A program made the position numbers and the translations under genes. Shown in pieces: positions 42,365 to 61,144 of a DNA stretch of 64,000 bases. Source of the stretch: Eremomyces bilateralis CBS 781.70 (lineage: Eukaryota). The notes below the pieces were generated by a model. The model did no database searches and was not told the origin of the DNA. It saw only the letters and a program-made list of their open reading frames with translations. The stretch lies in the NCBI GenBank assembly GCA_010015585.1, contig ML975157.1; one strand, 5' to 3'. Each line of letters starts with the position of its first letter. Position 1 is the stretch's first letter.

Positions 42365-43310
42365 TTAAGCCTTCAGTTGATTTGATAGAGCACCAACGTC
42401 TAGAGGGTGAGGAAGTGGATTGCCTGCCCACTCCGCAACCTCAGTACAGATTTTGGCCACCTCGGTCACAACACCCTCTCCGTTTCCCATTGCAAGGCTA
42501 GCTTTAAGATGGCTTCTTGCTTGTCTGGTGGAGCCACTCGCAGTAATAGCTGTTGCAATTAATAGCTGCGTTTGATGTTCGGCGAGCACACCCGATTTAT
42601 TTGCGCCTGCAACGCTGTAGCCCCATACCACTGTGTTTGTAGCCAGCCTCATCTCAGGAAACCCGATCGAAAGCAGTTCCCGCACTTCAGGATTGTTGAC
42701 CTTTTCGTATGTCCTAGCAATCATGGCTTTTCCTTCTTCTAGATGTACCCCCGCATCCAAGTCGCCCCTAATTGAATTAACACTTTTCCAGGGAATCGTT
42801 GAACGATAGTCCGGCTCCTAGCCTTTCGTTTCAACATACCGCACTTTCTGAGCCCCAATAAATTCAATATTTCTTCGCTGGAGGACATTTACAATGCCCA
42901 GGCCCGCAGGTACTGTCCATGGAATGCCAACGAATGGCCAGATAACCGTGATACATTCTCTTATTTTGTAGAATATCGCCTTGATTTCTTCAATATCTGT
43001 CGTACCTTCAATTGCTTCTTCAAAAAGCTTGGACGCACAGTCTCCTCTATGCGTGCCGACAAAGACCGCGGCCTATATCTCCTTGTCAGTGGGATGCATA
43101 TCACCGCAGGTTGTCTTGTCTTTGGTGAAAACGTACCAAGACAGCATAGCTGTAATACTTCCATTCGTCCTCTCCAAATGAGAGCAGACGCTTCCTTAGC
43201 GACGTCACCAATTCCGATGAAAAACCAGGTGCCCCGGGTCTGATATTCGCCGAAACATACCGCGCTTCAAATTCCGCTTGCTCATCGCCAGTTGGCTTTG
43301 ATTGTGCCAT
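42365..43310 (-). CDS. AhpD/carboxymuconolactone-decarboxylase-like helical protein (paralog A), 3 exons
   Basis: Spliced: MAQSKP...RPGAPGF...YAVL|AAVFVGTHRGD...IRECITVIWPFVGIPWTVPAGLG...KVR|GDLDAG...QLLIATAITASGSTRQARSHLKASLAMGN. The all-helical pattern resembles fungal AhpD-like proteins. Confidence 0.7.
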
Positions 43311-43543
43311 GTTGAAAAAGTAGCATACAATTTTATGCCTTGCTAATTGTTGCAGTGGTGGAGATGTGGCAGCTCGAGGAATTCGACTAAATGTACATGG
43401 GAAAGGCCAGAAAATATCCCGTAGTAGCTAGGCTAGTGGGATGATTTGGCGCATATTTGAGAGTGCACTCTTTCTCTTTGAGAGGCGGTCCCTTATTCTC
43501 GCGGAGTGGGACGTAGACCTAGTGAGTGAGTGAGTCTGGGCTA

Positions 43544-43589
43544 CGGAAGTGCGGGGAGCGGACCCGGTTTGTGCTACGGAAGAACGGGG
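43544..43589 (+). promoter_or_regulatory. Two CGG-N5-CGGGG sites in the AhpD-A/FMO1 divergent promoter
   Basis: CGGAAGTGCGGGG (43544-43556) and CGGAAGAACGGGG (43577-43589), each preceded by GCTA. Confidence 0.65.
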
Positions 43590-43801
43590 GTCTCATGCAT
43601 GGGCGATTCCATTGTTGGCTCACGGTGGAGCAGAGTAAAAAGCATGAGCAAATAAGCGGTCAGTTCGAGTTAAGTACTAGGTGTGGCACCGTGAGGCTGA
43701 AATACAGCAGGAGGTGCGTAGTACGATTCAGATCTCAGGCGAGGAAAATTAACCTTCAGAGCAGCTGTCATTTGCCGCTCATCACGACTGCTTCCATCCA
43801 A

Positions 43802-45490
43802 ATGGATCCTTATATTCCCTCTTTCGATGTCCTCGTTATAGGATGCGGTCCAGTTGGCCTTTTTGCAGCATATCTTCTGGGACAGCGCGGAGTTCAAACC
43901 TTGATTATCGACAAACACGTAACAAGAAGGGGTCAACCCAAAGCCCATGCTATAAATCCACGTTCGTTGGAGATTTTTCGTCAGACCGGCCTGGACGTTC
44001 CTTGTTTACGTCGTGCCGGACTTCATCCACAAGATGTCGACTTGGTCCGCTTTGTTTCTTCCTTTTACGGGTGGGAGTTCGGTAATCTTCCGTACGAGCG
44101 ACAGTTGGACGACGTCAAGGATGTTACCCCTGAGCCGCTGTTCAACATTGATCAGCCCAGTCTGGAAGAGTACCTGCTTTCGGAAGCTCTCGAGTCCCCG
44201 TATGTCATAATTCAAAAGCCAGTCGAGTGGAGGGCGGCTCGAAGCATCGCAAACGGCGATGTAATTTCAACCTTGTACGACCGACAAACGGACAAGTCTT
44301 TTGAAGTCCAATCACGCTACATTATTGCTTGCGATGGATCGCGCTCTACCGCACGAGAAGTTTTGAAGTTCAAGCTCAACCCTCTTCCCGATGTCGAGTG
44401 CAAAACAACGGACTATGTCACTACTCATTTCAAAGCCGACCTGTCGGGTGGGCGCTCCGGTATTCTCTTCTTTATAATGCAGCCCGATGGCTTGAGAACA
44501 TTTATCCGCTATGGTGCGGTTGACTGGGTGCTCGTCTACAGGTTCAATCCCGAAAAAGTTCAGCCTTCGACATTCACTGAAGAAGAGTGTTCCCGCCACA
44601 TTCAGGCAGCTCTAGGAAAAGACGTTGAGTTTGAGATCTTGAGCATCACTATCTGGTCCACCACGCCTCGCATCGTGGAGTCCTACCGCTCCTCCCTGGT
44701 CAAAAATGCGTTCCTTGCTGGCGACTCGGCGCACACATTCTCTCCAACCGGTGGACTGGGTCAAAACACAGGCTTCGGCGATGTCCATAACCTGGTATGG
44801 AAGCTTCTGATGGTCATGAACGGCCATGCTTTGGATATCCTGATGGACTCATATGACGAAGAGCGCATAACAGTAGCAGTTGCGAACGCACGTCAAAGCA
44901 CCGTCAATGAAGCCAAAATGGATGTTTTAGGACAGACTATCAATCCGGCGAGCGAACGCGGCCATGGTAGCCAAGAATGGGAGAATGAAGACTTTCAGTA
45001 CAAAGTTCGAGAAGCGATCCAGCACAATGCCGACCACTTTGACTCGCTTGATCTGCAACTTGGCATGATTTACAACAAGCTGCCGCGACCGACGGACCAG
45101 AATGTTTCCAAATTTGTTCAAAAAGCAGTTCCTGGAGCCCGATTGCCTCATGCTTGGGTCGAATTTGGTGGAAAGGTTGATGCTTCATCCCTGGACCTTG
45201 TGGGCTATTCGGACCTCACTCTACTATGCCCCGACCTCGTGCTTGCCCATGAGCTAGAGTCCCGACTTTCCGCAAATGTACGAGAATTGGTACAAATCAA
45301 GATTCTCGGTAGTCATTTTACCACCAACAATACCGACTGGCTCGATATGCTTTTTACCACGCAAAGGAATCGGGCAGTGCTCGTACGTCCAGATCAGCAT
45401 ATCGCCAGCCTTCTTGATTCTACATCATCTATGGTTCAAGCTTTCAGGTCTATCAACCTCGAAGTCCCCAATCCTCCTTCCTTCTCGTGA
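43802..45490 (+). CDS. FAD-dependent aromatic hydroxylase (FAD_binding_3, TfdB/PheA-type) FMO1, intronless
   Basis: VLVIGCGPVG, ACDGSRS, FLAGDSAHTFSPTGGLGQNTG, PGARLPHAW and LVRPDQHI. The likely start is MDPYIPS at 43802. Confidence 0.9.
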   Translation: MDPYIPSFDVLVIGCGPVGLFAAYLLGQRGVQTLIIDKHVTRRGQPKAHAINPRSLEIFRQTGLDVPCLRRAGLHPQDVDLVRFVSSFYGWEFGNLPYERQLDDVKDVTPEPLFNIDQPSLEEYLLSEALESPYVIIQKPVEWRAARSIANGDVISTLYDRQTDKSFEVQSRYIIACDGSRSTAREVLKFKLNPLPDVECKTTDYVTTHFKADLSGGRSGILFFIMQPDGLRTFIRYGAVDWVLVYRFNPEKVQPSTFTEEECSRHIQAALGKDVEFEILSITIWSTTPRIVESYRSSLVKNAFLAGDSAHTFSPTGGLGQNTGFGDVHNLVWKLLMVMNGHALDILMDSYDEERITVAVANARQSTVNEAKMDVLGQTINPASERGHGSQEWENEDFQYKVREAIQHNADHFDSLDLQLGMIYNKLPRPTDQNVSKFVQKAVPGARLPHAWVEFGGKVDASSLDLVGYSDLTLLCPDLVLAHELESRLSANVRELVQIKILGSHFTTNNTDWLDMLFTTQRNRAVLVRPDQHIASLLDSTSSMVQAFRSINLEVPNPPSFS

Positions 45491-45762
45491 CAGCTTCCTA
45501 GCTTATCAAAAGCTCTGGTAGTAGCTGAACCAGATACATAAACCAAGTTGGGCCCATGATAGAGAGAGAGTAGACAGATAAAATGATAACTGGCAATTCA
45601 TGAAATGACTCAATGAGTCGTCTTAAATAGTAAAGTCGAGTTGATGCCGTATTGAAGTGACATGTTTGGGACTCGGCAGGGTCCTATCGCACTTGTCACT
45701 GGTTCAAGCAACTTCGGGAAAGGATTTTCTCTTGCGGCAAGCAAATCTATTGATACAAATTT

Positions 45763-47493
45763 TTAGACGCAGAGACTCAAGCACTCTACAAGGTCCTCTT
45801 TCGATCCAATGAATCCCATGATGTGTTGATCTGGTCTCACTAAGAGCGCCGCCGATGGAGACAAATGTGCGGCCCTTATCCAAGCCGCAGGAATTCGCCG
45901 CTCCTTCACATCGACAACTACCACAAGATCCTTCAGATCTTCAATCCAAGAGGAGTGGAATTTAACTGCAAAAAGCGTCAGTTTCCTTTCGGATACTAAG
46001 TCAAGCGTTGACGCCTTCCTTCCAACGCCATCGATCTGAAGCAGCCACGCGTGGGGTAATCGTGCACCACACTCGAAACTCGGTTCGTATAGGGAGCAAT
46101 CTTTGCGAAGAAGCTCTTGCGGAGACTTCGAAGCCTCGACATCATTGTATACGTATCCCAATTGAAGACCAAGACTGTCAAAATGATCTCGATTCCGCTC
46201 AATCGCCGTGGTGATATCGTTCTTGACCTGAGATTGGAGCATAAGCTCGGGTAATGCCGCTGACATATTTGAGACCGTCTCCAGAACCACCGCATCCAGC
46301 TGCCGCATATGTTGTTCGTTTACGGCAGATTGAATAGAGTTGGCCACCGCGACGGGTCTCCGTTCGGTGGTGTAAGTTTTAAGAAGACGTTGAGGAGTAG
46401 CTGTCAAGCCATCCAAAACAAATCTCATCTTCCAGACGAGGTTATGTGCGTCGGCAATGCCGGTGTTGACTCCGAGCCCTCCCATCGGTGGAAATGTGTG
46501 CGCTGCGTCTCCCGCTAGGAAAATTCGTTGATGACTATCAGAGTAGGAGCTCGCCGTTCTCGGCCACGTTGACCAGATTTGCACAGAATGAATCTTGATA
46601 TCGCTCAGAACGCCCGGACCGATGGCAGTTTTAATCTCTTTTTTGCACCTCTCGACGGTAAAGTAGCCCAAAGGTTCCTGAGTTATATCAGGAACTGGCC
46701 GAGCATATACCCATTCCGGATTTTTGTATCCGATGAAACCGCCATGCCTCGTATCTGGCGAACAAAAGAAGTACAACTGAGCCACTCGTCCATTGGTATA
46801 TGAAGAGAGGTCCATCGTGCAATGTACGGAAACGTAGTTCATCAGACCTCTATCGTCGTCGATCGCCTCCAGCTGGACTCCAGGGATTCGTGACCTAACA
46901 GTGGAATTCGTGCCATCTGCTCCAACGACAAACTTCGACTCCACTTCCAACACCTCGTTATGCCCTCGTTGCTTGATTCTGGACCTCACAATCTGTCTTT
47001 CTGCGTCGTATTCATAGCTTTGCCAATCGTGAGATCGATGAATCGTAACGCGGCCAGTTCCAAGGACCTCTTCTTGCAGTGCTTGCTCCAGAATCGGCTG
47101 TGAAAGATTGAAAAGAGGTTCCGGAGTCAATTCCTCCACGGCTTTATCTTGCCTCTCATAGGGCAAACACCCTATTTCATCTCCCGTTAGGTGTGTTAAA
47201 AACCTGACACGATCGCCTTCCTCCACAGGAACGCCCTTCTGTCTCAATTCGTCCAGGTCAATGCCAGCCTGCCGTAATATCTCGAGTGATCGCGCGTTGA
47301 TAGCATGTGCCTTAGGCTGCCCAAGTCGAAGGGCATGCCGTTCAACAATGGTACTATTGATTCCTTGTCTCGCCAGCAGTAGTGCAGTGACCAATCCAAC
47401 AGGACCCAGTCCCACCACCAGCACAGGTGTAGACAGTGGCGATTTGCTGAAGAGCCTTTCATCCCGCGTGGGAAGTGGATCAAAGTAGGCCAT
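45763..47493 (-). CDS. FAD-dependent aromatic hydroxylase (TfdB/PheA-type) FMO2, intronless paralog of FMO1
   Basis: VLVVGLGPVG, GADGTNS, FLAGDAAHTFPPMGGLGVNTG, GARLPHAW and LVRPDQHI. ATG 47493 is preferred because a TATA-like element at about 47560 is too close to the alternative ATG at 47529. Confidence 0.9.
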   Translation of the reverse strand: MAYFDPLPTRDERLFSKSPLSTPVLVVGLGPVGLVTALLLARQGINSTIVERHALRLGQPKAHAINARSLEILRQAGIDLDELRQKGVPVEEGDRVRFLTHLTGDEIGCLPYERQDKAVEELTPEPLFNLSQPILEQALQEEVLGTGRVTIHRSHDWQSYEYDAERQIVRSRIKQRGHNEVLEVESKFVVGADGTNSTVRSRIPGVQLEAIDDDRGLMNYVSVHCTMDLSSYTNGRVAQLYFFCSPDTRHGGFIGYKNPEWVYARPVPDITQEPLGYFTVERCKKEIKTAIGPGVLSDIKIHSVQIWSTWPRTASSYSDSHQRIFLAGDAAHTFPPMGGLGVNTGIADAHNLVWKMRFVLDGLTATPQRLLKTYTTERRPVAVANSIQSAVNEQHMRQLDAVVLETVSNMSAALPELMLQSQVKNDITTAIERNRDHFDSLGLQLGYVYNDVEASKSPQELLRKDCSLYEPSFECGARLPHAWLLQIDGVGRKASTLDLVSERKLTLFAVKFHSSWIEDLKDLVVVVDVKERRIPAAWIRAAHLSPSAALLVRPDQHIMGFIGSKEDLVECLSLCV

Positions 47494-47640
47494 GATTTCT
47501 TGTTTGGAGGTATCGCAGGGCGGTAACATGCATTCGATGACAAGGGCGAGGAATTACTATATAAACCCCTGTTGGCTTGTGCACTCTCGCGGGCTACCTT
47601 TAGCCTTCCGCCTTCGCGGCACCAGCGACTGGGCTAGCTT

Positions 47641-48130: not shown

Positions 48131-49445
48131 TTACGTCAGTCTAGCTTCGCGTGGTCGCAACGCGTTGCCGTAGTCGCCAGCATTGGGAGCTCTTTGGATG
48201 GAGTGAATGTGATACTTTTCCGGATTCTTGTTATTCAAGAAAACTCCAGAGTGGTGGTCAAACTCGACAACTACTACCGGACTCTGAATTCGGTAGTAAA
48301 AAGGATCCTCATCACCGTAGCCTCCGACCCAGCTAAACCATGTGTCCTGGAGATGTTTTTGTATCTGCTCTTTTCTCTTCTCCCAAACCGTATCGGGTAG
48401 GTAGATGAGCATTTCGCGCAAGATAGAGAACACGAGCGAGATCTGTGACTCAGACATCGCTGTTAGCCGGATACCCTCATATGGAACAATGCGGTTGTCC
48501 TGGAAGGCACCGCATAAGTGGCGCTGATCAGCTTCGTTCCAACGCCCTGGCTCACAACCTTCCATGCGTGGATCTTTGTACACTTGCGCTGTGCGCTTTA
48601 GGGAATCAGGAAGACTCTGCATCAGAGCAAGCCCAAGCTGCTCTTCTGGACGCATCATGGTAGTGCCCTCCCATATACCCTCATCAATCTCGTTGGGTTC
48701 CGCCCCTATGAAGACGGGTGCAGCCATCATCCAACGTCGGTCCAGATAAACACACATGCAAACATGGTGGCCCCAGAAGTTCCATCCCCAAGCTTTATCG
48801 GCGGATGGCTCTCCGAAAAGGATAAAGTTGTAAGATCGTTGATTAAGTACTTTTGGACCATGGGTCAGTTGTCCGAGGAAGTGGTTGGCTCGCATCGCGT
48901 TAACTAGCTTGGCATATCCCGCAGGTGACAAGGTAGCTTTGATAATTCCAAGGATTGCATCGCTAAGCTGCTCCGAAACTTCGTCCAAACGAAGCCCGTA
49001 CTTCGAGATATATATCTCTGGATTCGACCAGCTCCTCCACTGTCGAGCATTGACAGGATATGTCAATGCCTTTGACTCAGCGGGGGTGCACAACGTAAGA
49101 GCTTGCTCCGCAGCCGTGACAATGGTCTCCGATTGGACACCTTGATCTTCATATTCGTACAAGTTTGGGACGAGGTTTCCTTCAATAGGGTGTTAGCCGC
49201 TTTGCTTAGCGCGAACACATGGAACTCGGGTAACTTATACCGTCAGAAGTCAGGCCTTTGTAGGGTTCTTCCCATAATTTCAGCCACGTCTCAGTAAGCT
49301 TCTTCGCAAAGGGGTTCTTGTAGAACTCGTCTGCCCACGTATGAGCGTCATGATGCGGCAACGCTTCGAATTTTCCGCTCGTCAGGTCAGGTAAGTAAGC
49401 ACGGTATTTGCCCGTTGGGCGTGTATCAACACTTTCATCCTTCAT
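48131..49445 (-). CDS. DUF3500-family protein, 2 exons
   Basis: MKDESV...EPYKGLTSDG|NLVPNLYE..., with RQWRSWSNPE, WGWNFWGHHVC, PVFIGAEP, YYRIQSPVVVVEFDHH and HIHSIQRAPNAGDYG, all characteristic of DUF3500. Confidence 0.85.
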
Positions 49446-49767
49446 CTTTTGATAACAAGTAGCTGCGTGCACAGCGGACTTCGCGCGTGTACCAGATGCA
49501 GTGGTGTAGTAAACTATGCTCGCCTGGTTGCGTTGCTTCGCAACTGGTCCGCTTTGAGCCAGATTTGGGAAAATGAGAGTTGTGTACGGAACAGATTAGA
49601 GCAATTTTAGCAACGCTATTGGAACCACAAGACAGTCACAATCCGAAGGGCCTTGATGCCGGGAATCATAGCCGAATTATAGATGACAAGGGTAGGCCAG
49701 AGGATCCCTTTGAGAAACTGCCTCAGAAACAGGTATGAGGTGTCATGATTAGCATGTTGGCCATTTC

Positions 49768-49854
49768 CGGTTGTCTGGGGGAGGTCGGCCCCCGCTGCGC
49801 CGCAAGTCGTAGGTTGTACCGGCTTCAAGGTTTGATCAAACCCCCACAGAGCCG
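49768..49854. promoter_or_regulatory. Three CGG-N5-YGGGG sites in the DUF3500/AhpD-B divergent promoter
   Basis: + CGGTTGTCTGGGG 49768-49780; - CGGCGCAGCGGGG 49790-49802; - CGGCTCTGTGGGG 49842-49854. Confidence 0.65.
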
Positions 49855-50057
49855 ACAACGGCGAGCCATGTCGGCAATCAAGAACGAGAACGAGCGAAGC
49901 AGCTATCCGTTCATTTCCGATGGGATGCTAGCATTGACTCTACACAGGTATTTGTATGACTGGTAGACTGGTAGAGTACTGATACGTTGCTCTTCAGGCG
50001 ATTCGAAAATCGAAATAGCACTGAAAGCAGCTCCCACCTCCAAGTACATCCAGCACC

Positions 50058-50907
50058 ATGTCCGATTTCGACTCCAAGTACGTCACTACCAATAACCGGC
50101 CAGGTGCACCGCAGTATGATGATGCATTCGTCAATTCGTTGAAAGAAGATATGCTATCGGAGGCACCAGACCTAGCGCTAATAGCCGACGCGGTCCTGGT
50201 ATGTTCTTGACAAGCCACGAGACATCCATTGAAATTGTGCTGATTACATCCTGTATCAGTCATCTTGCGCTATTGGGGCGCATCGAGCGGATTTCGTGCC
50301 ACGATTGCTTGATGCCGCACTCCAGACCATTCACCAAGATATCGAGAAATCAAAGGTGTGCTTTGAGCAGTTCAGGGCCGTGGTCATGATATGCTGGCCA
50401 TTCATTGGCATTCCATGGTGTGTCCCGGCCTGTTTGGGCATGGTAAATGTCCTAGAAAAGTATAACCTGCTTTCAATTGCGTACGGTCGCGCCCAGCCTC
50501 CGTTGAGCGATGCACACATCGCCATGGGCCAGGAGCTTCAACAGCGCACCTACGCAAATGTGCAGAATTCCGAAGTGCAAGCCATGCTCCAGAACTGTTT
50601 TGCAGACTTTACATTAACGACTTGGGGGGTCGTGTTCGGCTATTCGCTTGCAGAGACGACGAATAGAGGCATTTTCGAAGCCCACCAGTCGCAGTTGATT
50701 CTTGCCGCGTCCATTGCCTCAAGCGGAGCGACAAGGCAAGCGAGGTCGCATATGACAGGTGCATTGGGCCTCGGGCTTTCAGTGGCTGCAGCCAAGGCTA
50801 TATTGAAGGCTGCGAAGAGACTAAATGAGTGGAACGGTGTCGAAATCAGCGACATTGATGCCGGAGAATTGAATCGACAAATGGAAGCAGCCCAAGCTGC
50901 AAAGTAA
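50058..50907 (+). CDS. AhpD/CMD-like protein (paralog B), 2 exons
   Basis: MSDFDSKYVTTNNRPGAP...ADAVL|SSCAIGAHRAD...ICWPFIGIPWCVPACLGMVNVL...QLILAASIASSGATRQARSHM. It is clearly homologous to 42365-43310 and shares the position of intron 1. Confidence 0.72.
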
Positions 50908-51087: not shown

Positions 51088-53032
51088 TCAGCCCTGAGGA
51101 ATGAATGGTACAAGTAAAAGGCTGTCATATTCGCCGCCAGCATGAATTAAGATTCTGCCGTTGTTCAGTGTTTTGGGAGCATCCACCCAGGGTAACAACT
51201 CAGGTCGCAGGTTGAAGCCAGCAACCGAGAGTTGCATTTTCTCGCCTCGCTCCCAGATCATTCCATGTGGCCACATTTCTATCTCCACTGGCACAATCTC
51301 ACCCTCGCTCTTTAAGGTTTGGATATTGCGATGAGTGTAGTGGGGCTGGTGCGGCGTTGATCGCTCGATGTCCAGTTCCCTATGGCTGACCCGGAGGCGA
51401 CCATGTGCACCTTCAGAGAAGAATACATTTACACGCGGATCTCCTGCTGCATGCATCTCTCGAAGTTTCTCCTTGGCAACCTCGGGATTATCTTGGAGAT
51501 ATCCAACATCAACACACTCAGTTTCAACAAGGCCGCCATTGGCGTCCAACTTCGAGAACTTCGTGAAAAGATCAATGTCGTCGTTTCCGATGGCCTGGAC
51601 CCAAAGCTTCAGTTTGAAATAACCTGTCAGCTCAGCCTTGCAGGGAAAGGTGTAAGTAAACTTGGCAATGTCCTTCCTGCTGTCTAGGTTAACTGTATCC
51701 GGGTTCGTTGGTTTATTCCCCCATTCCAGACAGGATGTCGATGCATTCAGGTAGAGAGGTATTGATTGTTGCCTCGTGAGAGGAAATTCAAGCTCCGGCC
51801 GATTGACAATGTCCTGATTCCCTGGGTTGAGGATGGACAAGCGGACCTTGGGTGTAAATTCCCAGCCGTTGGATTTGTCCTTCATGAAGTGGTCGTAGAA
51901 CTTTCGAAGATCTTCAACATTTTGAGGGTAGTACAGATCTAAGATCGTTAGCGTCAAGCTAAACTTGGTTAGAGCATGCGGATCTACCCGGCCATTCATG
52001 ACTATTGTGAACCCTCAACCACTTCTTCGGGCTACTCGATTCGGACCATCCGCGGAATGTACCCCGTGTGTGCAACATATTAGTCCAGCTTGCAACAACG
52101 TACAGTGGTATCTTAATGTTTTCCACCTTAGCTCGACGGTCTTCCCAATAATCGTTCCAAGTTGGGTACTTCGCAGTCATTGCGGACACGTCTTCCGTGC
52201 GACCTAACCCTACAAAGCAATTATCCAGAAGATTTTGTTGAAACTCCGCATCTGGAATGCCACCACGTTGGACGGTGTCATTGTACAAATCATTCCATCC
52301 TTCCCACGGAGCCAGACAGGTCAGATGAGGAGGCGATTCCGCACCGACCCACCACTGGGTTTGTGCGAGATATGAGTTGCCAGCCATAGTCACTCTGACA
52401 TGTCGTAAGTTCTTTGTTAAATATGATGGAATTGTCATTACTAACCGCTTATTGGACCACGGCTGCTCAGCAATCCATTCAACAATGTCGTATCCATCCT
52501 TGCCGTCTAATGTGGAATTGATGTATACATCACCTTCGGACATCCACGTACCCCGGGTATCTTTACTTGAGACTTAATACGAATCTGATCTGTTTGAGTA
52601 GGATAGCAACTTACCTGGGTGAACCAAAGCATAGCCATGCAAACACCAGTATGCCGGATCTAGGGCTTCGAACTTCTCCAATGAACTGACAGTCTTTTGA
52701 GGGATTCCATTGCGCCACGGAGCGCGGTCGGTCCCCATGCGGTTCAAGCCACCCTGCTTTCCAAAACCAGCACTCGATATGATCGCAGGAATTATTTTGC
52801 CGCCATTGGGTGGCCGAAAGACGTCTGTGTATATCGTGGTCCCGTCTCGAAGCCTCAACTCGACATCCTTTTCCCAGAGGATATCGCAAGGCAGCGCCAA
52901 TGCTCCATCTTTCAGAATAGAACCCTTTGTAAGGAGTTCAGTCTCTTGTTTGAACCCCAGATAGAGGGCATGGCCTTGAGTAGTTGAGGGGGACTCTTTC
53001 AGAATAATATCAATCTCACCGATCTTGTCCAT
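51088..53032 (-). CDS. CocE/NonD family (peptidase S15) serine hydrolase, 4 exons
   Basis: LRDGTTIYTDVFRP, FEALDPAYWC..GY, DGYDIVEWIAEQPWSN, nucleophile elbow GNSYLA, PPHLTCLAPWEG, and a C-terminal PepX_C-type domain containing GRLRVSHRELD. Confidence 0.9.
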
Positions 53033-53187
53033 TCTTGTGGATCTTGAATGAAAAATCAGTTATATTTAAGCCGAAGTAGAGGGAAATAATCAGACTGAGA
53101 AATGCTAGCTAAAACAAACCTTTTGAACTAGACCCTAATGGCTAGATACTAATGTAGGAATATGGTAAGCCATGAGCAAATCAGGAT

Positions 53188-53358: not shown

Positions 53359-54281
53359 ATGGCAAGTTGGTCAAAGCTAGTTCGTTTCACGGATTTAGCA
53401 GGCAATATCCATTTTGGAGAGCCGACAGATGACTTCAGTCACGCCAAAGTCTGGGAAGGAATTTCGCTCTTCAGCCTTGCAAGAACTGACCGGGTCGAAA
53501 GGATTGCAGCTGTAGGTTCCCAAAGCAATTACACAATGACCAGTTTTCTCACTGTACCAAGCTTTTGCCGCCTTATCAACCCGATTCGATCCTTTGCATA
53601 GGCCTCAACTACCTAGATCATGCAAAAGAATGCGTAAGGCTCTTGTTCCCAACACCCAACAACTGAATGTCTGGTAACCTCTGGCAATAGAACCGCCCTA
53701 TACCCAGCTATCCAGTCCTATTCTACAAGCCGAAACTCACCGTGAATGGACCTTTCTCTGATGTTGTGGTTCCACAACACTGTAAGAGCCTGGACTACGA
53801 AAATGAGCTTTGCGTTGTGATGGCACGAGATGCAAAAGATGTCGCTGAGAGTGACGCCATTGACTATATCTTGGGCTATACTGTTGGCAATGACGTGTCA
53901 TCCCGGGAATGGCAGCAACAGGAGCGTAGTGGTGGTCAGTTTTCGTTTGCGAAGTCGTGCGATGGTTTCCTGCCATTTGGTCCAGCAATCGTCTCGGCTC
54001 GTCTCGTCCCGGATCCTCAAAATCTGGCTCTCGTAACTAGGGTTAACGGAGAGGTTGTGCAAGATGGTTCTACATGTAATATGATTTTCAGCGTTGCGAA
54101 GATTATATCATTCTTATCTCAGGGAACCACAATTCCAGCAGGAGCCCTGATTATGACTGGTACTCCAGCAGGAGTTGCAGCCTTCAAAACATCACCCCCT
54201 GTTTGGCTAAGGAATGGCGACGTGGTCGAGTGTGCTATCTCGGGTATAGGTTTCATCAAGAACAAGATGGTCACCCAATAG
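53359..54281 (+). CDS. Fumarylacetoacetate hydrolase family protein (FAHD/acylpyruvase-like), 3 exons
   Basis: CIGLNYLDHAKE, PVLFYKP, LDYENEL, GYTVGNDVSSR, AKSCDGFLPFGP and IMTGTPAGV. Confidence 0.92.
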
Positions 54282-54779: not shown

Positions 54780-56299
54780 TCAGCGAAGCTCGGGTGCATC
54801 ATACTCCTTGGACCAGCCCACTGCTTTTGATATCGTGGTGAATGCACCTCCAACATTCAATGCCGCCGCCATAAAGTACAGAAATAGCTTCCCGCAGACT
54901 GAGTCTGTGTCTGGGAACTATATGAAGTCAGCAAATTCATCACAGATGAAGCTCTGCTACTTACACTTTGAGATGTCCCTCCGCTTTTTTTAACCCACTC
55001 GAAAGCACGGGGAACCATCTTATCCTCGTAATCTGTGACAGCCCTCTCATAGTCCTCATATTCTAGTGCTCTAGTCGATTTAAGTTCTGCCAATTGTAAA
55101 AGGGGCTCCAGAGCATCTGCGCAGTCATGTAAAGCCTGATTTGCACCCATGCCACGAGATGGTAGCATTGGATGGATTGCATCACCAAGCAGCCACACTT
55201 GAGGATGCCCGACCTCGAAATTTCCCGGTGAAGCAGCTTTAGCTTTCTTTCTCCACCCTAGAGAGATAGGAGTGGACACACGGGGTTTGACAATGTAGAT
55301 GTCGTCTTCGCTCACGACGTTAACGATATCGGTGAAACCTGGATGCCAATTTTTGACTTTTTCGAGCATCAGAGACTTTCTATCCACGACTGCCTCTAGG
55401 TTGGGGATGTCTGGTGTAGATGCCCAGTTGAACCCTACCATGATAGAGGCTTCTTCTTCATTGTAAATTGACTGCTTCTTCAAGGTGTCAGTGTCGTTCC
55501 CCCGGTCATCCATGTTCACTTGTTTGTCAGGCATATAGACTACGCAGTCAGTAAGACGCTGGCAACAGATTAAGGGGCTTGGGTAAGTGTGAGGTATATT
55601 CGTACCGGACATGAATGCCATAACGCCTTTGGAAGCGCATGCAATGCTCCCAGATTCGATCAATTGCTGGGGCAGGGTGCTCAACAACGACGGCGGCAGG
55701 GCTCCTTTCGATAGAAAGCCTTGTCTATCAGTCAACTCGACAAGATTTGACGCTCCGATCTGTGTATTGGAGCTGCTCCGGTTGCCATCAGCTGCAATGA
55801 GAATATCCGCATCATCCGTCGTTCCGTCCGCAAAGTGTGCCCTAACTCCCGATAGACCTTGCGTAACGCTATCGAGGGCCTCGTAGCGAACAAACTTTTT
55901 GCCGTACTGTAGGATGTTTCTTTCTCTCAACAGCTGTTGCAACAAGTCTCGGAGAAGTGCTCGATTGATAGGGGCTGACTTCGTGTACGCCGAATACTTG
56001 CGGAGGTCGAGAACGAGACTGAGCTGCGAGTCATAGAACACAGGTGCGGATGGCACGACACCTCCCGATCTTCCGAAACGCTGAAGCACAGAATTGTACT
56101 GCTCCTTAGTAAGGCATGCTCGAAAGCCAGTTAAAGCAGCAGCACCTAACCGGATTTGATATCCCCCTCGATTGGCGTCGTACTCGTCGCGTTCATAAAC
56201 CACGACATCTATCGGGGCTTTGCTGTGATTGATAAGGCCGTTCGCAATAAGAGATCCTGAAAGACCGCCACCAATGACTATTACCTTGAGAGGCGCCAT
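54780..56299 (-). CDS. FAD-dependent monooxygenase FMO3 (different subfamily from FMO1/2), 3 exons
   Basis: VIVIGGGLSG, GGYQIRLG, IAADGNRS and WLLGDAIHPMLPSRGMGANQA. The spliced last exon is FPDTDS...YDAPELR* with the stop at 54780-54782. Confidence 0.88.
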
Positions 56300-56640: not shown

Positions 56641-57165
56641 CTAACTTATTATTCTTTCGTCTTCCTCTAGTTATTTTCTTTATCCCTTTTTTCCTTGTGC
56701 ATAAAGTCTTTAAGCCCACTGATCTGACTGAATTAGATGTCTAGTTTCCAATCTCAACAAGTATTAATATAGGAAGAATCGCGAAATATATGTACGTATA
56801 TAGACGGTAATACTGGACCGATATTCTGCTGCCTTGGTAGGCGGTCATTACGATAGCAGCATTTCGCTAACATTATATTGAAGTGGAAACCAAGTTGACT
56901 AATATCGTGTTATATGAAAATGAAACTCGATGGAACTCTCTAGAGAGTTCTTGAATGTTTGCGCAAGCTATTATTACAATTATCTCCGAGTGTTATGGTT
57001 CCAGGCCTGTGGCTTGTCTCCTGAATGGTAGTCACGTGACTAAGTCAACTGTCGAAGTCTTCGACATCGCGCACGCGTCGTAGATAGCTCTTCTTCTTTA
57101 GCTTTGCAGTAAATGAAAGTGGTTCTCGTAACTTCTGCGATCAAACCGTCTCACCGAGGACATAA

Positions 57166-59280
57166 CTAGCGCCTGGTTTGCCCATGACCTGATTCAAATC
57201 TCGCACCTCGCGAGCGCCGAAACCGCCAAGTGCTCATCGACTGGCGAAGAGCTTTGCCTTTGATATAGAATGGAATTCCAAGGAGGCCCAAAAGGCTCAT
57301 AATACCAGCATATGTACCAAAACATCCATCGAACCCAGCTCTGGTGACAAAGTCGACAACGCCATAACTGATACCAAACCCGACGATGTTACGGTAAGCA
57401 CCGACGGCAATAACTATTGGACCAGCCAAGTCTGGAAAGCACTCGATACCGTACGTGGTAGATATTACGTTAGCTGCTATGAATCCGAACTGCTGGACCC
57501 CTGTCATGACTAGCGGAACAGCCCAATGGAATCGATCAGCGTGACTGCATGATATTCCGAAGATGAGCGTGCCAACAGCGCCACAAATGACGGGGAGGAT
57601 CAAGTTTGGAAGTTGATGCTCGGGCTGTCGTTAAAAATGTCAGCATGGAGTATTTAGACCAACTGGCTAGGTTAAGTACTGACCTCGTGTACCCCGTTAT
57701 TCCTCTTGGCTAGGAATTGGATAACCCTATCCCCACCAAAACCTATAACAGGGATCGCGACCAAGCTAGAAACAGCAAGGGGGATAGTGGACAGCCCAAT
57801 TTTATCCGGACTCCAGCCATAGTTGATGACAAGAACATTGCCTAGGACAAGACCAGACGACAGAACCACGCCAATGAAGCATGCATTTAGGCATACAAGC
57901 TTACGATGTTGTTAGATAAGTACATGTACAAAGCCGAAAGGAGCGCCTACCCATATGATGTTCGGGAAGAGAGCACACCGGAGAAGGTCCGTGCAAGTCT
58001 CCCACATTTTCTGGGCGCCAGTTTCGCTCGAAGTAAGTCGAAGGCTGTAGAGGTAGGACCGATCCCGACCGCTCGGACGTACAGGCTCAACGAAGCCATC
58101 CGTTCCTTTAGGAGATAGGCCCGCTGGATATGTTAGCTCTTCGGAATATGCCGATAAATTGCAGTAACTCACCAAGGTCGGCTTCCGTTCGAGCCCAGCT
58201 AGTCTCGGGTATAACAAGGCCTATCAACACTAATGCAGTGGCTCCGATGAAAGCCAGAATCCAGTAATACCACCTCCAAGATAGAGCGGAAACGATATAC
58301 GTGGACGCAATACCAAGTCCTGTCCCAACAATCCCACCGGTGGACCATAGGACGGCGAGTTTAGAATTACGATTGTGAACGTAGTTGATGTCTTGAATAA
58401 TGAGCGGCGCCAGTGACTCGACTGCTCCCACACCGAGACCTAGTACACAACGTGCTCCAATATGAGAGTAGAGTCCGTGATCTTTGCCATTGGATGCTGC
58501 TGCCCAGCACAGGCATACGACTACGATAGCCGCATCGAGGACCATCATCAACCTTGTACCAGTTAATTGTGCCCCGAGGATCGACAATATTCCGCCCAGG
58601 CCAACAAATAGCGATGGAAGTGTCCCAAGCTGACTAATGGTCTGTTGACTCGGCTTTCCAGGCACAGATGGAAAGGATATGCCTTCGTAATGAGTCTCGC
58701 GGCGAATGAGTGCACCACTGGGCGGAATGCCACCAGGGGGTAGACCGCTCGGAGGAAGACCATCCGATGGCAGAACACCAGGAGGCAGACCACCAGGGGG
58801 CAGACCATTAGGAGGAAGACCACCTGGCGGCATGCCAGCGGAACCCATGGACATCATGTTCGGATCTAAGTCTTGATAATAGAGACTAACGGTTGGTAAG
58901 ATGGCTGCAATAGATTGCACAGCTGTCAATCCAGCAGCAGCAACTGAGACTATTAGAAAGGCGCCCCAAGAGATGATGATACTCTTACAAAGGCAAATCG
59001 TGAATAGAACCGCCCACTTGCGCCTCTCTGGGATTCTCAATGGATCTGAAGACTTTGTCAGCATGGTGGTCGCTGAAATTCTATCGTGGTATCTCCGCGC
59101 TGTAGTACCATTGGGATCCGATGATGGAACTGGAATCAACTGGATGGTTCCCGTGGAGTCATAGAGGTTGATAGTGCCATCAGCAACTTCCTCCCTATCG
59201 CCTCGCGTGGTCATATCTCTTCCTGCCGATGCAGTTCTTTCCTCTTGGTGGACCACACTGGGTTCTTTCTCGGGGTCCAT
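57166..59280 (-). CDS. MFS transporter with a Gly/Pro-repeat insertion in its first loop, multi-exon
   Basis: PVPSSDPN|DPLRIPERRKW, ARCVLGLGVG, IQDINYVHNRN, LSWRWYYW, IPETSW, PEHQL and YGIECFP, with about 12 hydrophobic segments across the exons. Confidence 0.85.
58714..58836 (-). repeat. 15-nt coding tandem repeat (G-[LMI]-P-P-x, about 8 copies)
   Basis: GMPPG GLPPN GLPPG GLPPG VLPSD GLPPS GLPPG GIPPS in ORF 58108-59280. Confidence 0.85.
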
Positions 59281-59725
59281 TGTAACGGCAAGTCAAAGTT
59301 GTCCACCACGGTAAAAGAGAATGAATGAGCCAAAATACCAACGAGAGTTATATGCGATGTTCTCTATGACCCAAGTCCGCAGCACTGAGCGATCGGCCTT
59401 TGCGGGGTACATATCATGTTTATGTACAAGGTGTTAATGACGTTCTTCTAACCTGACACAAGGTTCACCTCTGTATTCCTATGGGCCAAAGGATAGAAAA
59501 AGGGCAATATTTGTGGCGCTTCATATCATAGCGATCAGCTATCATCCGTACCTCACTTAACTTGGTGCCATACGGAGGCAATGAGCCGGTCGATTAAGCA
59601 CAAATTACTCTATCCAAGATCCACATTGTCTCAGGCAATAGGCCAGGGTTGATTTCCGAGAAGAGATGGCCTTGAATTGGGGCGAGGTCGGATATCGAAG
59701 TCGGCATTGTGGGCATACTCACTGT

Positions 59726-60010: not shown

Positions 60011-61144
60011 ATGGTCGAAAAGCAAACAATCGAATGGTTTGGTATGGCTGATATGGGTTGATTATATCGCCGTCATTGCTGATGAAACCAAGGCGCCACC
60101 ACTTTTCGACTTAGAGCTAAAGGCTTGACAATCTTTCTTGACACGTGGTTGGAGAGGCCGTCAAACATACCAACATATGCCTCCATTGACGATATTGATG
60201 AATGCGATTACATCTTTATCAGCCATGCGCATTTCGATCAGTATGAATTATGAACTGACGCAAGACGCCCTGAACTGACTCTTTGCAGTCTCCCTGGCGC
60301 TGATCGCCTAGCGAAAAAGACCGGCGCAACTATAGTTGGAAACGGCGAGGCCGTGAGTGTCATGCGTGCGGCTGGCGTACCAGAAGAACAGCTTCTGCCC
60401 GTTGCCGGCGGAGAAAGGATACCTCTTTTCTCAAAGTCTATCAGGGACGAAGTGCGATCGCAGTTCAGGGAGTTTCCAAGAAGTCGCGGGCCCCCAGGTC
60501 CGCCTAGGCCAGATGTATCCAAAGCTTCACTGTCGGTGCATGTATACCCCAGTCTTCACTGCCTCATGCCTGGGCCGCCAGGTCAACATCTCGATTTCAT
60601 CGACACAGCAACTGAGTACATTGGCGGCTCTGATCCATATGCTGGCACAATCGACATTACTATGGGGATGCGATATGGCTTGCTGGCTGCTGCGAAAGCT
60701 CCTCTGAGCGCCCGTGCTCAAATGCCTCCAGATTTCAGGCCATTTGTCGAATACATAGCGGATGAGAGAAACAAGTTCTCTAACTTTGACGGAGGCCAAA
60801 TGATGTATAACTTTTTTCTCGGCGAAAAGACACTATTATATATGTCACATCTAGGCGGATATTCGGGTATCCTGAAAGAGCTCGAACCACAACCCGACAT
60901 TCTTGTTATGGGCATCGCTGGGCGCGGCAATATCAATGGCCGGCCTTTTGATGGCTCAGCTGCACAGTGTGCGACGAACATCATCAAGTGGCTGGGTGAG
61001 CCGGAAAAAATTATATGGTGTCTGCACGATAAGGCTCCAATCAAACCATTCCGCGTGGAAACCGAGGCAGCAGCGAAGATGGTAGAGGCCGAAACTCGTT
61101 CGCGAGTTTTGACTTTGGAACATGCAACTGTGTATGATCTATAG
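60011..61144 (+). CDS. Metallo-beta-lactamase-fold hydrolase (UlaG/Lactamase_B_3-like), 3 exons
   Basis: Spliced MVEKQTIEWF|GATTFRL...IFLDTWL...YIFISHAHFDH|LPGADRLA provides HxHxDH. Later motifs are PSLHC and WCLHD. Confidence 0.88.

Follow-up and report, generated by a model that had tools for sequence, protein, structure and literature searches.

The DNA considered here is a stretch of 64,000 nucleotides of contig ML975157.1 from the Dothideomycete Eremomyces bilateralis CBS 781.70 (assembly GCA_010015585.1), the whole of which we refer to as the window. With its sparse open reading frames (ORFs) and short GT..AG introns, the window is eukaryotic in look. Among genes for flavin monooxygenases and hydrolases it harbours a gene of the DUF3500 family, whose product is a candidate for the opening of aromatic rings. 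This gene lies on the minus strand and consists of two exons (49445-49241 and 49179-48131), with an ATG at 49445 and a TAA stop codon at 48131-48133. The first exon (49241-49445, 205 nt), as read from sequence, specifies residues 1-68 and base 1 of codon 69. A GT..AG intron of 61 nt (49180-49240; GTATAAGT...CTAAC...AG) separates it from the second exon (48131-49179, 1049 nt including the TAA), which holds the entire Pfam domain together with the four short motifs GHH, GAEP, EFDHH and HIH. The spliced product is 100% identical to P0001, a protein of 417 aa named as a hypothetical protein of the same strain. Splicing can be followed in the contigs of X1, one public run that was typed 'RNA?' as a guess and whose contig depth is unable to rank expression; one of these contigs joins 49178 to 49240 and skips exactly 61 nt, with CT..AC ends on the plus strand. 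Since X1 contigs skip the exact intron and the product is identical to P0001, the gene model is right and a spliced copy exists.

The ORF of exon 2 matches PF12006 (DUF3500) with E=2.2e-104 and a score of 349.6 bits (cut-off 27.2), spans positions 2-297 of the 297 of the profile, and has this as its sole Pfam family at E<=0.01. The family is large and comprises 3075 representatives at 50% identity when matches at E<=1e-3 are counted, and 1281 at E<=1e-10. A first-pass annotation of the window, made from the letters alone, had singled out the four motifs as clustered potential metal ligands, and all of them are present (G205-H206-H207, G227-A228-E229-P230, E374-F375-D376-H377-H378 and H392-I393-H394). 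Conservation was assessed in alignment A1, which holds 49 diverse homologues with identities down to 26%. The key histidine and glutamate residues are conserved there to 96-100%, namely H206 (0.96) and H207 (0.98) of GHH, E229 (0.98) of GAEP, E374 (1.00) of EFDHH, and H392 and H394 (both 0.98) of HIH. The other residues of EFDHH vary more (D376 0.86, H377 0.82, H378 0.61); outside the motifs, D296, R398, D404 and Y405 are invariant (1.00), and R117 (0.98) and R365 (0.96) are nearly so. Such a conserved His/Glu set makes a metal in the DUF3500 protein plausible.

The phylogenetic position of P0001 was examined in two trees, of 57 and 33 rows, which are IQ-TREE quick searches over rows picked by hand from the listed matches. 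In the tree of 57 rows, P0001 belongs to a clade of eight rows (SH-aLRT 99), which includes two proteins of Aspergillus pseudoustus, one of Neopestalotiopsis and one of Leptodontidium, and which is separate from a clade of 37 rows with Aspergillus terreus and several Dothideomycetes. Eremomyces bilateralis is also named as the source of a second DUF3500 protein, P0352, encoded on another contig, which falls into this canonical group (tree of 33 rows, set of nine rows, SH-aLRT 99) and shares 48% identity with P0001, 56% with the A. terreus protein and 60% with P0018. The A. terreus protein (P0080, ATEG_08221-22) is 53% identical to P0001 and has the same Pfam family and the same conserved residues. 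P0001 nevertheless lies outside the clade that unites this protein with P0352, and orthology to the group of ATEG_08221-22 and AN10530, its counterpart in Aspergillus nidulans, is therefore not supported. Unlike the latter proteins, P0001 represents a separate, patchily distributed clade in a host that has a canonical copy of its own. These trees show the window gene to be a paralogue additional to the canonical copy. This goes beyond published work, as do the linkage to a CocE/NonD hydrolase, the bacterial fusions, the fold match and the bacterial survey described below.

The surroundings of the gene are those of a catabolic cluster. On its right-hand side in the numbering used here, a divergent intergenic region of 612 bp (49446-50057) leads to a gene on the plus strand (50058-50907, with an intron at about 50198-50258 and a spliced contig), which encodes a protein of 262 aa (P0121) resembling carboxymuconolactone decarboxylase (CMD) and AhpD; we refer to it as CMD-like gene B. 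It is followed by a gene of several exons for an alpha/beta hydrolase of the CocE/NonD type (51088-53059, minus strand; Peptidase_S15 and PepX_C; PDB 3ib3 at E=1.5e-32), by an FAH-like gene (53359-54281, plus strand; PF01557 at E=1.2e-63; introns 53512-53561 and 53634-53690 in X1) whose PDB relatives place it with the HpcE/FAHD1 or acylpyruvase type, and by a salicylate-hydroxylase-like gene, flavin monooxygenase 3 (54857-56299, minus strand; introns 54918-54964 and 55540-55605). Further out lie a multi-exon gene assigned by Pfam to the major facilitator superfamily (MFS) of transporters (57166-59292, minus strand; joints in X1) and a possible gene of the metallo-beta-lactamase fold with the motif SHAHFDQ (60086-61144, plus strand; introns 60041-60091 and 60241-60288 in X1), for which the Pfam match is weak and under the cut-off (Lactamase_B_3, E=0.0018). 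On the other side, flavin monooxygenase 2 (45763-47529, minus strand) adjoins the DUF3500 gene; its closest solved relatives are 2,4-dichlorophenol 6-monooxygenase and 2-hydroxybiphenyl 3-monooxygenase. Like flavin monooxygenase 1 (43526-45490, plus strand), it is of the phenol-hydroxylase type and carries FAD_binding_3 and Rng_hyd_C. A second CMD/AhpD-like gene, gene A (42368-43277, minus strand), has introns at 42767-42838 and 43072-43135, joints in X1 and a match to PF02627 under the cut-off (E=0.037). The GT..AG joints seen in X1 also fall in CMD-like genes A and B, in the genes for the FAH-like protein, monooxygenase 3 and the MFS transporter, and in the one that closes the cluster, so that there are spliced contigs for the DUF3500 gene and six neighbours. 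Another X1 contig, of 3820 nt, is unspliced over the convergent genes for monooxygenases 1 and 2 (43767-47538) and may reflect read-through, antisense transcription or residual DNA.

Within 8 kb of the DUF3500 gene, FAD_binding_3 is thus found in three genes and FAA_hydrolase in one, which is the co-clustering that characterises the 1,2,3,5-tetrahydroxybenzene pathway discussed below. The neighbours listed by the first-pass annotation (hydroxylases, an FAH hydrolase and an AhpD-like pair) are therefore borne out, and so is the lack of a canonical ring-cleavage dioxygenase: the 14 + 54 + 42 ORFs scanned with Pfam gave no match to an intradiol, VOC, LigB or cupin family, the 42 having been drawn from the 110 ORFs that reach 95 aa or more between 1 and 32.7 kb. 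Part of this arrangement is kept elsewhere. In the one metagenomic relative that was found (L083), genes for an MFS transporter, a flavin monooxygenase, a CocE/NonD hydrolase and a DUF3500 protein with 71% identity stand in a row; the hydrolase gene (58-83% identity) directly precedes the DUF3500 gene, and no CMD-like gene lies between these two.

CMD-like genes A and B flank the core of the cluster and are paralogous to each other (34% identity over 232 aa; tblastn E=3.8e-31). Carboxymuconolactone decarboxylases act after ring cleavage. The first-pass annotation had offered the pair as an alternative candidate for the ring-fission step, and the hole in the pathway together with the presence of both genes in the cluster is what speaks for such a role. 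The likeness of the pair, weak as it is, is however to carboxymuconolactone decarboxylases, as seen in the PF02627 match of gene A, in the best Foldseek match of the gene B model (4g9q, a 4-carboxymuconolactone decarboxylase, E=4.4e-3) and in the comparison with PDB 2af7 (E=0.76). Gene B, moreover, has only nine homologues at E<=1e-5 in a collection of 5.8 billion proteins, where its source name is carboxymuconolactone decarboxylase-like, and is thus a rare accessory gene. Taken together with the gene order of L083, these points leave ring fission by the CMD-like pair without support, and we consider it very improbable.

What DUF3500 genes do in fungi has been approached by genetics. In the part of the study available to us, Martins et al. 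(2023; PMC10832562) describe four gallate-induced genes of A. terreus that A. nidulans requires to grow on gallate, and which encode a decarboxylating monooxygenase, a DUF3500 protein (AN10530), a short protein without a known domain (ATEG_04855 / AN0331) and an FAH-like protein. According to the same text, deletion of AN10530 in A. nidulans leads to poor growth on gallate, tannic acid and 2,4,6-trihydroxybenzoate and to a transient build-up of 1,2,3,5-tetrahydroxybenzene, which readily auto-oxidises; deletion of the gene for the short protein, the next mutant in the pathway, causes accumulation of 5-hydroxydienelactone (PMC10832562). The passages at hand of a 2025 review call AN10530 a 'putative dioxygenase' whose homologues 'remain to be studied', and those of a 2026 database paper have the DUF3500 family open the ring in an eighth central pathway of fungi. 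As far as these clusters are described in the available part of PMC10832562, they resemble the window in combining a DUF3500 gene with genes for a flavin monooxygenase, an FAH-like protein and an MFS transporter; they differ in that the DUF3500 gene of the window is linked to a CocE/NonD hydrolase and to two CMD-like genes. The first-pass annotation had proposed the DUF3500 protein as a novel ring-cleavage dioxygenase or metalloenzyme by reasoning from a hole in the pathway. That reasoning arrives at the role given by the published genetics of AN10530, and to this extent it stands; the word 'novel' does not, as the same hypothesis appeared in print in 2023 and was repeated in 2025 and 2026. 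The interpretation is therefore an independent rediscovery, and the finding opens no new question.

We consider it probable (about 0.6) that the DUF3500 protein carries out ring opening on a tri- or tetrahydroxybenzene received from the neighbouring hydroxylases; the rest of the pathway would fall to the hydrolases next to it, the CMD-like pair and the FAH protein of the acylpyruvase type. In such a scheme, the flavin monooxygenases would make the tri- or tetrahydroxybenzene, and a cytosolic DUF3500 enzyme would open its ring, probably under consumption of O2, to give a hydroxymuconate or a hydroxy-dienelactone. The ring-opened product would then pass to the CocE/NonD hydrolase, the CMD-like pair and possibly the protein of the metallo-beta-lactamase fold, and the FAH-like acylpyruvase of the HpcE/FAHD1 type would perform the last step. 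Our own atom count, C6H6O4 + O2 - H2O = C6H4O5, gives the composition of the published lactone, and the fact that it balances with O2 favours an oxygenative cleavage. Because the window gene is a second paralogue embedded in a cluster, and not the housekeeping enzyme for 1,2,3,5-tetrahydroxybenzene, we infer that the encoded enzyme probably acts on another, related polyhydroxy-aromatic compound.

Among the bacterial members of the family there are fusion proteins. P0135 (974 aa, a length shared by 12 of the 14 members of its cluster; sources name Mycolicibacter arupensis) consists of FAD_binding_3, Rng_hyd_C and DUF3500, and P0142 (691 aa, Curtobacterium) joins DUF3500 to a dienelactone hydrolase domain (PF01738). 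Both share 36-39% identity with P0001 and retain all ten of the residues checked (H206, H207, E229, D296, E374, D376, H377, H378, H392 and H394). A further protein, P0164, combines DUF3500 with Abhydrolase_1 and keeps eight of these ten, with D376 replaced by V and H378 by Q. P0135 and P0142 imply the same order of steps as the window cluster; they differ from it in being fused polypeptides of Actinomycetota and, for P0142, in a partner hydrolase of the dienelactone hydrolase type instead of CocE/NonD. The order implied by the fusions, from hydroxylase to DUF3500 and on to a lactone hydrolase, is the one that ring opening to a dienelactone predicts. The two types of fusion may hence be taken as independent support for a ring-opening role, and they suggest that the CocE/NonD hydrolase of the window fills the role of the lactone or ester hydrolase. 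When the non-DUF3500 parts of longer homologues were compared with the window by tblastn, as a way of locating the short protein of the gallate pathway, no match at E<=1 was obtained. A possible fungal relative of these architectures is P0369 (715 aa, 'partial', Chaetothyriales sp. CBS 132003), to which precomputed Pfam results assign FAD_binding_3 and DUF3500; it would be either the eukaryotic equivalent of the fusion in Mycolicibacter or the product of two gene models run together.

A ring opening of this kind could also proceed without a metal. Cofactor-independent oxygenases exist for such substrates, and His, Asp, Glu and Arg residues of the DUF3500 protein would then deprotonate the electron-rich, auto-oxidisable substrate and steer O2 towards it. 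This would accord with the ready auto-oxidation of 1,2,3,5-tetrahydroxybenzene (reported in the part of PMC10832562 at hand) and with the invariant or near-invariant arginines R117, R365 and R398, whose conservation suggests the binding of an anion. Four histidines and two carboxylates, each conserved to at least 96%, are however more typical of a metal site, and we regard a metal-free mechanism as rather unlikely.

Several observations weigh against a ring-opening role, and the first of them concern the structure of the protein. The AlphaFold2 model of P0001, made with A1, is of high confidence (pLDDT 95.0, pTM 0.93). Its single Foldseek match in the PDB at E<=0.001 is 9x86 (E=2.9e-17), and an exhaustive structural alignment (VIA) against 48,161 chains retrieved this entry alone at Z>=5 (Z 20.9, rmsd 3.2 Å over 254 residues, 28% identity); in sequence, phmmer relates the two proteins with E=2.4e-19. 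The second-best fold match reaches a Z of only 3.6, and no resemblance to a known dioxygenase was seen in these comparisons. With 9x86 as its single match, P0001 appears not to have the fold of a known dioxygenase, although a relationship to dioxygenase folds could exist without such a match. The canonical ring-cleavage enzymes (intradiol hydroxyquinol and catechol 1,2-dioxygenases, the extradiol enzymes of the VOC and LigB types, and cupins) would occupy the same position in the proposed pathway, between the hydroxylases and the lactone or acylpyruvate hydrolases; P0001, unlike them, has PF12006 as its one Pfam family, and its fold is matched well by 9x86 alone. This sole solved member of the family is titled 'Crystal Structure of dehydratase ApmL in Amipurimycin biosynthesis', its chain being named Amc20, and no paper on the reaction of ApmL or Amc20 was found in our literature searches. 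Literature searches for DUF3500, PF12006 and tetrahydroxybenzene likewise retrieved no enzyme assay of any DUF3500 protein. In addition, the published genetics concerns the canonical clade and not that of P0001, and the window yielded no counterpart of the short protein of the gallate pathway, whose own sequence was not among the queries. By its sequence relationships, the window gene adds a member, from a paralogue clade set apart from the canonical one, to an already known type of protein with a putative ring-opening chemistry.

The title of 9x86 brings up the possibility that DUF3500 proteins act one step later, as hydro-lyases or lactonising enzymes that turn a dihydroxymuconate into a hydroxy-dienelactone, with the ring being opened by a canonical dioxygenase encoded elsewhere or by non-enzymic oxidation. 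By our own atom count, the conversion of the muconate into 5-hydroxydienelactone is formally a dehydration, and the fusion of DUF3500 with dienelactone hydrolase would suit the formation of a lactone equally well. Two proteins with a C-terminal cupin, P0149 (a eukaryotic gene model of Aspergillus karnatakaensis) and P0216 (from a cluster of 10 members), could provide the dioxygenase partner and are themselves a point against ring opening by DUF3500; they may be genuine fusions or arise from the merging of two gene models and, if real, bear on the need for a separate dioxygenase. The comparison of the proteins themselves is less favourable to this idea. ApmL, which is called a dehydratase and not an oxygenase and stems from a bacterial sugar-nucleoside pathway, shares the fold of P0001 and keeps GHH, E374, D376 and HIH in the HMMER alignment, but it has N in place of E229 and N-T in place of H377-H378, and the segment D296-N297 is deleted. 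With 297 aa it is also the shorter protein, its match starting only at residue 84-127 of P0001, so that the N-terminal part of the latter is without a counterpart. Several of the residues missing from ApmL are near-invariant in the clade of P0001, and the reaction of ApmL may thus differ. Furthermore, what accumulates upon deletion of the A. nidulans gene is, in the available text, the aromatic substrate and not a muconate (PMC10832562), and the 2025 review, in the part at hand, states that growth of Aspergillus niger on gallic acid stayed intact after deletion of 17 dioxygenase genes. On balance, we think it improbable that DUF3500 proteins act only after the ring has been cleaved.

Further evidence against a general role in ring opening comes from bacterial genomes. 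The first-pass annotation had suggested a survey of DUF3500 neighbourhoods for an enrichment of flavin monooxygenase and FAH genes and for the absence of known dioxygenases. In 80 bacterial loci (±6 kb), found with a bacterial-type alignment of 12 rows (A2), 753 neighbour ORFs yielded no FAH or FAD_binding_3 relative of the window proteins (phmmer, E<=1e-3); the sole match was one Peptidase_S15-like ORF. The sole recurrent neighbour, present in 17 of the 80 loci, is a fusion of about 1000 aa between a beta-propeller of the pyrroloquinoline quinone (PQQ) type and a sulfatase (e.g. L024:2116-5163). A second phylum was sampled with 401 genomes, of which 70 (one of them, G454, unpublished) gave a DUF3500 match at E<=1e-20, and 20 loci of this phylum (±8 kb) contained no tblastn match (E<=1e-5) to the FAH-like protein, monooxygenases, hydrolase, CMD-like proteins or MFS transporter of the window, nor to the dienelactone hydrolase part of P0142. 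The 37 annotated neighbours of this survey are heterogeneous, and none of them is a dioxygenase. Among the 401 genomes of the phylum of G001, a match was found in the centre genome alone (1/401), which thus added no new neighbourhoods. In all, FAH or flavin monooxygenase genes are found in 0 of the 100 sampled bacterial loci. The neighbours of DUF3500 genes at these loci are sulfatases, PQQ dehydrogenases and transporters. It follows that the association with aromatic pathways does not extend to the whole family but is confined to its fungal clade and to a small number of related proteins from actinobacteria. In this respect, our bacterial samples differ from a statement in the available part of PMC10832562, given there without data, that bacterial DUF3500 genes are often near an FAH-like gene. 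As a separate observation, locus L058 (5301-9068, plus strand) contains a single frame of 1255 aa with MacB/FtsX permease domains and a complete DUF3500 domain, and MacB/FtsX genes are found near DUF3500 at five of the 20 loci taken from the second phylum.

The bacterial data raise the question whether DUF3500 proteins have a role unrelated to ring fission, for instance on a polyol similar to a cyclitol or sugar, the window gene then being an accessory of its cluster. A fusion of inositol monophosphatase with DUF3500 is recurrent (P0151 and P0302; an ESM Atlas cluster of 55 members from Actinomycetota); it counts against a ring-opening role and hints that part of the family is tied to the metabolism of cyclitol or sugar phosphates. 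A query of the ESM Atlas by features without PF12006 gave no usable match. The lack of aromatic-pathway neighbours at all 100 bacterial loci, the sulfatase and PQQ-propeller neighbours at 17 of 80, and the origin of ApmL from a sugar-nucleoside pathway point in the same direction. They are met by the fungal genetics (PMC10832562, in the part available), by the monooxygenase and dienelactone hydrolase fusions, which occur in those bacterial proteins that are nearest to the fungal clade, and by the linkage with a flavin monooxygenase and a hydrolase that is kept in L083. For the window gene, a function apart from ring fission therefore seems distinctly unlikely, and ring opening is the role we prefer.

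Ring cleavage is the committed step in the turnover of aromatic and lignin-derived carbon, and to our knowledge all textbook enzymes for this step share a small number of folds. DUF3500 proteins, should they prove to open rings, would constitute a further class of such enzymes, and one that is very widespread in Ascomycota. We speculate, with considerable reservation, that DUF3500 is a new structural class of ring-opening enzyme with a His/Glu site of its own, and that the clade of P0001, always accompanied by a hydrolase of the CocE/NonD type, represents a second DUF3500 central pathway for a different polyhydroxy-aromatic compound, perhaps one derived from esters or depsides. The family might then have one chemistry on polyhydroxylated six-membered rings, which would be aromatic for the fungal members and those of cyclitols or sugars for ApmL, the bacterial members and those fused to inositol phosphatase, with ring opening and dehydration as two outcomes of an enediolate-type catalysis. 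The window gene is of use here as a second, separately clustered and transcribed copy, whose comparison with the canonical copy of its host could reveal the determinants of substrate choice. The fusions of DUF3500 with hydroxylase and dienelactone hydrolase, for their part, offer intron-free constructs for enzymology.

Two smaller observations concern the intergenic regions of the cluster. The first-pass annotation had counted three copies of a motif, which it left undefined, in the promoter region shared by the DUF3500 gene and CMD-like gene B. K-mer and repeat scans of 49446-50057 did not reproduce this count: no k-mer with three copies was found, only 8-mers with two copies are present, and the best repeat is CATTTCCG, which occurs twice (at 49762 and 49912). 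Over the intergenic regions of the cluster, no k-mer is enriched beyond the expectation of about 2000 tests. Next to the MFS gene, X1 contigs at 56990-57160 stand out by a word depth of about 1182, four base differences and loose ends; this intergenic or 3' stretch is probably overlapped by a related, highly represented sequence from elsewhere.

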